The notes beneath the pieces were generated by a model. That model saw nothing but the letters and a program-made list of their open reading frames with translations, did not search any database and was not told where the DNA came from. This document shows, piece after piece, positions 2,650 through 3,070 of a DNA stretch of 64,000 bases. The DNA lies in NCBI GenBank assembly GCA_951406725.2, contig OX597840.1:28830001-28894000 (forward strand), in the 5' to 3' direction. The DNA is from Octopus vulgaris (lineage: Eukaryota). The translations under genes and the position numbers were made by a program. Numbering within the stretch: position 1 is the stretch's first letter; each line of letters opens with the position of its first letter.

Positions 2650-3070
2650 ATGGAAAAAAGTCAAGATAGAAAATGCTAATTTAATTTTATAAAAAACATT
2701 TCAGTACCGGTTTCAGTCATTGAGCCTTTTTCAACTGTAAGTATGGAAAACAATTAAATTTGGAAAAATTAAAAGAAAAGTTTTTTTAAAAGAATATTTG
2801 TTTAGTGTTCAAATGCACTATACAATTCACAATGACCTCGAACCCACAAGTGTAAACAAGAGAGACAGAGAAAGGCAGAAACAAGGAAAATGCCACTTGT
2901 ATTTGAACACTATACAAATATTCTTTTAAAAAAACTTTCCTTTTAATTTTTCTAAATTTAATTATTTAATTGTTACAGTTGAAAAGGTCTCAAAATGACT
3001 GAAACCGGTACTGAAATGTTCTTTATAAAATTATTTTAGCATTTTCTATCTTGACTTGTTTTTTCCATAT
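2650..3070. mobile_element. Fold-back element with ~165 bp inverted arms carrying a hammerhead-like motif; probable Penelope-like terminal remnant
   Basis: Arms ~2650-2817 and ~2897-3070 are diverged reverse complements, flanked by (TA)n. Confidence 0.7.
2976..3013 (+). ncRNA. Minimal type I hammerhead ribozyme candidate, U3-A8 core variant
   Basis: cag-TTGAAAA-ggtc(tcaaaat)gact-GAAA-ccg-GTA-ctg. Stems I and II pair and stem III is the palindrome accggt. Confidence 0.6.

Follow-up and report, generated by a model that had tools for sequence, protein, structure and literature searches.

What is a hammerhead-like motif with an unusual core doing in the arm of a long fold-back, and does the departure from the ordinary core tell of selection on catalysis? 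The questions arise from one locus of the window, by which is meant the whole stretch of 64,000 nucleotides analysed here, an AT-rich setting (GC 0.32) with many microsatellites and decayed transposons that is plainly of animal origin. The preliminary description had read CAG-TTGAAAA-GGTC..GACT-GAAA-CCG-GTA-CTG from the letters, and all of these bases are found on the plus strand at 2976-3013 (Table 1). They follow the type I order of core N3-U4-G5-A6-N7-N8-A9, G12-A13-A14-A15.1 and an NUH triplet, here in the form of UUGAAAA, GAAA and GUA, with a helix I of 3 bp, a helix II of 4 bp (GGUC/GACU) and a predicted cut after A17 (3010) of the GUA triplet. By its sequence, the motif is a type I hammerhead design with a U3-A8 pair. 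The same UUGAAAA core had also been noticed in the inverted arm and is confirmed there on the minus strand, and a 3/8 pair capable of Watson-Crick bonding, U3-A8, is present in both arms. The left-arm motif has an identical core and a weaker helix II (AGGC/GACU, one G-A mismatch), while in helix II of the right arm the G10.1-C11.1 pair of the family majority is replaced by a G-U wobble. As a second copy of the same element, however, the inverted arm is not independent evidence.

Table 1. Features of the hammerhead locus, its flanks and the two further U3-A8 motifs of the window
Feature	Position	Strand	Basis or remark
SINE-like repeat	2467-2651		further copies at 8790 and near 9892
(TA)n left flank, tail of the upstream SINE-like repeat	2635..2651	.	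sequence, repeat families D14, D15
Left arm, 5'-truncated inverted element copy, TA run at its end	2652..2817	-	arm comparison
Inverted hammerhead copy	2702..2737 (read 2737-2702)	-	sequence comparison
Direct copy of the high-copy repeat (pseudo-LTR-like unit)	2824..3066	+	contig alignment
Minimal type I hammerhead motif	2976..3013	+	read from sequence, pattern and structure scans
Helix I 5' strand CAG	2976-2978	+	
Core TTGAAAA = UUGAAAA (U3-U4-G5-A6-A7-A8-A9)	2979-2985	+	U3 = 2979, A8 = 2984
Helix II GGTC, 7-nt loop, GACT	2986-2989 (GGTC), 2997-3000 (GACT)	+	
GAAA	3001-3004	+	
Palindromic helix III ACCGGU	3004..3009	+	
GTA (GUA) triplet, then helix I 3' strand CTG	3008-3010 (GTA), 3011-3013 (CTG)	+	
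Optional tail of about 34 nt, right arm only	3067..3100	+	sequence, contig alignment
(CA)n/(TA)n right flank	3101..3145	.	sequence
Third unrelated U3-A8 motif	4646-4610 (motif 4643-4613)	-	scans
Second unrelated U3-A8 motif	21999-22041 (motif 22002-22038)	+	scans

Is a motif of this kind to be expected by chance? A search with a pattern that was itself derived from the motif gave three matches in the window, two of which are the two arms, whereas shuffles averaged 0.19 and none of 100 attained three. A structure-first scan left positions 3 and 8 free but called for helix I, helix II and a helix III that is palindromic; over the whole window it returned seven hits (three U-A, three C-G and one A-U), and the bases at 3 and 8 could pair in each of them. 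In 100 local dinucleotide shuffles the hits averaged 0.58 per window, with U-A at 0.07 and at most one. A stricter scan retained five motifs (three U-A and two C-G) versus 0.28 per window in 60 shuffles. The weak left-arm copy failed both scans. Folding of the isolated motif was no better than that of shuffles (z -0.06), and the motif had no Rfam hit at gathering score; a sub-threshold match to Hammerhead_HH9 at 2965-3032 (15.9 bits versus 52, E = 2) is the sole hammerhead among 21 weak Rfam matches in 2600-4700. An unremarkable fold and a sub-threshold score are to be expected, because the motif is a minimal hammerhead, and none of the C3-G8 motifs of the window attains the Rfam gathering score. 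Six hammerhead motifs aligned with MAFFT stayed out of register at their cores.

The fold-back around the motif sits as a whole between TA runs, and its arms of about 165 bp (2652-2817 and 2898-3066), identical at 148 of 163 aligned bases (91%), enclose a centre of 80 bp; the cores of the two arms lie 277 bp apart on opposite strands. The SINE-like repeat on its left is one that we take to be an octopus-type SINE. There is no open frame at the locus, the translations upstream of the motif being closed, and no tandem or head-to-tail copies occur within the window. Pfam found no PLE domain (PLE, Penelope-like element) in 13 open frames of the window, the weak matches to zf-RVT, RVT_1 and Pex14_N and a DDE_3 match in the same frames being distant from the motif or unrelated to it. 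A likeness to a GIY-YIG C-terminus, noticed by eye in a frame at 2818-2935, was dropped because the frames are closed and the family continues upstream as (TTC)n.

How widespread is the element, and in what form does it spread? Contigs of 4 out of 24 sequencing runs (X1 and X10 from organism A, X10 being guessed to be RNA, X3 from organism B and X16 from organism E) were aligned to 2800-3100 only, at 80% likeness, and 5992 contigs of X1, 3639 of X3, 1398 of X16 and 517 of X10 matched. In X1, summed depth, which is not equivalent to copy number, was 36-39 at 2800-2821 versus 10^5 to 10^6 over most of 2833-3063. The element is a high-copy repeat in three coded organisms. The family match begins at 2824, where loose ends run upstream into (TTC)n in all four runs, and this upstream continuation holds the (TTC)n run instead of an ORF. 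At the other end, many contigs exit at 3065-3074 into (TA)n and others reach 3100, so that 3067-3100 is an optional tail. The fold-back junction stands at single-copy depth and is specific to the 2652-3100 locus; the palindrome is therefore not a fixed form of the family. Joints at which the strand changes are found in other contigs too, at several distinct places, and fixed terminal inverted repeats common to family copies were not found in the contigs of the four runs. A search with a pattern of the family that left positions 3 and 8 partly open gave no match in viral contigs; in metagenome contigs it gave nine, all of them put down to chance, as their helix II had 0-3 pairs and BLAST did not match them to the element.

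Does the family hold positions 3 and 8 together? Among the variants listed for X1, X3 and X10, which cover position 3 but not position 8 (2984), T>C at 2979 has a depth of zero; further A>G places beyond those listed number two in X1, one in X3 and some in X10. The loose-end consensuses at 2994 (47, 64, 31 and 7 contigs in the four runs) all read TTGAAAA, and so does the one at 3001 (nine contigs, X16). Five X16 contigs have C at position 3 (68.8 of 278.5 depth), and since the three A>G places tallied in that run (2914, 2964 and 2975) all lie elsewhere, these contigs probably carry an unpaired C3-A8. Free variation at 3 and 8, which the preliminary description had named as a finding that would speak against it, is not seen at the level of subfamilies, whose consensuses keep TTGAAAA. 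Helix II, in turn, occurs in three fully paired forms in which all four pairs are kept, equal to two compensated double changes: GGUC/GACC (T>C at 3000 accounts for 90% of depth in X1 and for 75% in X3); AGUC/GACU (the A taken from loose ends, the U at 3000 at 85% in X16), a pairing, G-C to A-U at 10.1-11.1, that is deduced from run-level frequencies and not from single copies; and GAUC/GAUC, with both strands inside one loose-end consensus (nine contigs, X16). No variation of helix I was seen in the contigs, which hence give no covariation support for that helix. Taken together, the kept core and the compensated helix II point to selection on RNA structure in the subfamily founders. The earlier claim of selection can thus be upheld for the RNA structure of those founders, and finds no support for the present copy, which is one of very many, has a G-U wobble and would be sequestered in a fold-back. 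Nor can the double change be placed within the family: no C3-G8 sister subfamily was seen in the contigs of the four runs, and the change is therefore relative to the general consensus.

Among the marks of minimal hammerheads, the first pair of helix II is G10.1-C11.1 in the majority of X1 and X3, G-U in the right arm and, as read from the runs, A-U in the second subfamily; the family shows no clear sign of an extra base between A9 and 10.1. The flank upstream of the left-arm motif matches the second subfamily (loose-end consensus at 2994), and when 2966-3000 is set against 2715-2747 it is the left-arm flank together with the core that does so. The right arm has the 5' side of the first subfamily, yet the U at 11.1 of the second, and may be a mosaic generated by template switch or by conversion between the arms.

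What, then, is the element? The motif is probably a dimer-type minimal hammerhead of a PLE family, situated in the pseudo-LTR-like unit of a copy that is short and non-coding. One transcript of an active master element would hold two such units in tandem, which would pair via ACCGGU and so form helix III, whereupon the RNA would be cut after GUA; U3-A8 would replace C3-G8 with the Watson-Crick pair of the core retained. The copy at hand would go back to an insertion of PLE type within a TA run and would carry a second copy, inverted and 5'-truncated, at its 5' end; the result would be inert, with motifs on opposite strands and arms that fold onto each other. PLE parentage, cleavage in the master element, dependence on a dimer and inactivity of the copy are what we infer, membership of the PLE class being assigned because of the architecture, that is, the layout of the insertion. 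An inverted 5'-truncated copy, an optional tail of 30-40 bp and a microsatellite target are all present here, and PLE inserts into microsatellites, with a tail of 30-40 bp and, at the 5' end, a copy that is inverted and 5'-truncated, have been described (Craig et al. 2021; PMC8557442), a 30-40 bp PLE tail also by others (Frangieh et al. 2024; PMC11167929). The likeness to the insertions described in these two papers extends to a tail shortly downstream of the hammerhead and to the (TA)n target; unlike in them, no ORF follows the motif here, and no RT or GIY-YIG coding sequence linked to the family was found at the locus or in the contigs aligned. Searches for short motifs of the family came up empty in the supplement of PMC8557442, which includes octopus Naiad sequences and whose line breaks could hide a match, as well as in that of PMC13282606. 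The latter work lists 190 PLE families, amounting to 6.83% of the genome, in its repeat annotation of O. vulgaris, and hammerheads or ribozymes are not mentioned in its main text.

Would such a motif cut? Within one copy, closing A15.1-U16.1 takes the structure from -2.4 to +3.5 kcal/mol and is unfavourable, and two ACCGGU strands from separate copies form a 6-bp duplex of -8.3 kcal/mol; the palindromic helix III is unstable in a single copy and stable as a dimer. In the fold of 2650-3100 the arms pair mutually, and helix I and helix II have a pairing probability of 0.0; with the left arm removed, that of helix II is only 0.13-0.18. As modelled, the copy at 2976-3013 is probably catalytically inert, because motifs on opposite strands cannot dimerise on one transcript and because the arms of a read-through transcript would fold back on one another. 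By analogy, cleavage activity is likely to be low in the family at large, since the minimal hammerheads of PLEs cut weakly as multimers (PMC4209133) and the hammerhead of an anole PLE cut only with the protein of the element (PMC11167929).

Could the hammerhead look simply be incidental, the element being a DNA transposon of the MITE or fold-back kind that has long terminal inverted repeats and targets TA? The TA flanks and the 91% identity of the two arms, each about 165 bp long, would suit such an element. Its palindrome, however, ought not to have an arm-to-centre junction that is single-copy and not fixed in the family, strand-change joints that elsewhere fall at differing places and a one-sided tail, and neither the compensation of helix II around a constant core nor the hammerhead-like core in the arms of the neighbouring fold-back at 3135-3673 fits with a chance resemblance, so that we consider this origin highly improbable. 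Very little weight is likewise given to a non-LTR retrozyme, i.e. a tandem repeat of about 170-400 nt with a circular RNA, that would be present as scattered monomers. Like animal non-LTR retrozymes (PMC7229834; bioRxiv 10.64898/2026.07.22.740005), the unit is short, non-coding and of high copy number and combines a type I hammerhead with a palindromic helix III; it is also covered by contigs of X10, the run guessed to be RNA. Unlike in those retrozymes, there is no tandem array in the window, the hammerhead is minimal rather than canonical, with a helix I of 3 bp versus 6 bp in canonical animal type I hammerheads (PMC4209133), and the inverted copy and the tail are traits of PLEs. The retrozyme and PLE readings overlap in any case, because the 2026 preprint argues that retrozymes are derivatives of PLEs (bioRxiv 10.64898/2026.07.22.740005).

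A different kind of doubt accepts the PLE origin and takes the whole family for a dead relic, in which U3-A8 was fixed by AT-biased drift in a founder and spread by hitchhiking. The AT-rich setting, a very weak helix I and the minority of contigs that are apparently C3-A8 all speak for it, and hammerhead mutations in the anole PLE had no effect on insertion in vitro (PMC11167929). Drift of this kind is difficult to reconcile with three helix II forms that retain all four pairs, and with three unrelated motifs of the window that have both U3 and A8 when no structured hit has an unpaired 3/8; it is therefore judged improbable. The hammerhead of a PLE family remains the preferred reading.

The 64-kb count stands at three unrelated U3-A8 motifs versus three C3-G8 families. 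The U3-A8 motif at 21999-22041 combines a UUGAUAA core with a 5-bp helix II (GGUUC/GAACC), a palindromic ACAUGU, a GUU site and a helix I made entirely of A-U pairs; it lies in a TA-rich stretch, and the 130 bp upstream of it have a relative at 29985-30113 (minus strand) that stops short of the motif. The one at 4646-4610 has a UUGAAAA core with an extra G, a 5-bp helix II (GUUGC/GCAAC), an AAUU helix III, a UUU triplet and CUA/UAG as helix I. The second fold-back at 3135-3673, adjacent to the first and lying in a TA run, has a canonical CUGAUGA core at 3496-3502, arms with a helix II region of 69 nt and the palindrome ACACGUGU, and 31 bp in common with 4550-4580; in its centre, GGTGAGT lies about 60 bases before a TTTAG that closely precedes helix I, an arrangement with the look of a short intron. 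Two related canonical C3-G8 minimal hammerheads, at 4216-4171 (minus strand) and 34794-34843 (plus strand), are 73% identical over 131 bp and share a 7-bp helix II with one extra base on each side and the palindrome ACAGCUGU. Between TA runs at 33989-34480, a C3-G8 motif whose helix III is long (34298-34349) comes after a short fold-back (33989-34123), and a degenerate CUGAAGA motif was seen by eye near 34130-34170. As to other elements, remnants of non-LTR retrotransposons and of Tc1/mariner type lie at 22504-23068, 24153-24815, 7631-8149, 14602-14772, 53595-54344 and 62407-63419 (three of the six with RVT_1, zf-RVT or DDE_3 matches, the others judged by eye). The non-repetitive stretch 2045-2460, of ordinary composition and with broken minus-strand frames, had no convincing Pfam match and is possibly a decayed coding fragment.

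A further observation concerns the 5' strand of helix I. A T-rich tract at 2930-2978 (plus strand) ends in TTACAG directly before U3 and resembles a 3' splice site overlapping helix I, and the family-majority base at 2851 creates a donor-like GTAAAC about 127 bases upstream of it. Among the joints listed for the contigs of the four runs, none is a splice-like joint to 2979. The position recalls the Penelope of D. virilis, an intron of which is described as ending at helix I (PMC4209133). Might U3-A8 be recurrent, reached independently by several PLE families, and go along with a splicing switch at helix I? This broader proposal is doubtful.

How much of this is new? Przybilski and Hammann are said to have reported activity of U3-A8 hammerheads in vitro in 2007. 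Natural U3-A8 covariation in several hammerheads was described by Perreault et al. (2011; PMC3088659), who, citing earlier work, state that such variants are active in vitro; the compensatory change at the 3-8 pair is identical to the one seen here, while the part of that survey dealing with it draws no tie to PLE pseudo-LTRs and the present motif is a minimal, dimer-type one. The U3-A8 variant in PLEs of Schistosoma mansoni was likewise reported by Cervera and de la Pena (2014; PMC4209133), who found that their own descriptor had missed it and with a new one retrieved about 1,300 U3-A8 hits besides about 2,000 ordinary ones; the supplement gives the cores UUGAAAAA and UUGAUAAA plus a U3-G8 example from Saccoglossus, and Fig. 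S2 has the UUGAAAA core in a PLE-linked S. mansoni motif. The U3-A8 pair, published both as a natural covariation and in PLEs, accordingly loses its claim to novelty, whereas the warning that searches for CUGANGA would miss such cores is borne out by what the 2014 paper states of its own descriptor. The variant, its PLE setting, the CUGANGA blind spot and the rough frequency are already in print. A literature search for C3U plus G8A gave no matching paper, and no description of an octopus hammerhead was found in a literature search that left most subscription journals outside its reach.

With the minimal hammerheads of the S. mansoni Cercyon PLEs (PMC4209133) the motif shares the type I order, the short helix I, a palindromic helix III that requires a dimer and a U3-A8 core of UUGAAAA. 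As in the minimal hammerheads of that paper, copies are mostly single and dispersed, and pairs occur on opposite strands, the published ones 100-700 bp apart. Unlike in Cercyon, helix II has 4 bp and not 7-8, the extra base between A9 and 10.1 is not clearly present, one subfamily opens helix II with A-U where G-C is usual, and helix III keeps a CCGG insert, as do insect and shrimp variants (PMC4209133). The host group also differs (here probably cephalopod-like, to judge by the SINE), and the motif is known here without a linked ORF. What appears to be mildly new is the host group, the two further unrelated U3-A8 motifs and the splice-acceptor-like TTACAG at helix I.

What does this mean for the family and its lineage? 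If the doubtful proposal of recurrence together with a splicing switch were true, surveys based on CUGANGA would miss about half of the hammerheads of the lineage, and splicing of a pseudo-LTR intron could swap the 5' strand of helix I, thereby toggling cleavage. That descriptors fixed on CUGANGA undercount PLE hammerheads is confirmed. The chemistry of the hammerhead is left unaltered, U3-A8 having already been published in nature and in PLEs; what is added is a U3-A8 hammerhead family of very high abundance. No hammerhead description was found for its host group in the literature searched, and the family's three helix II forms on one core make up a natural series for asking whether the minimal hammerheads of PLEs cut.
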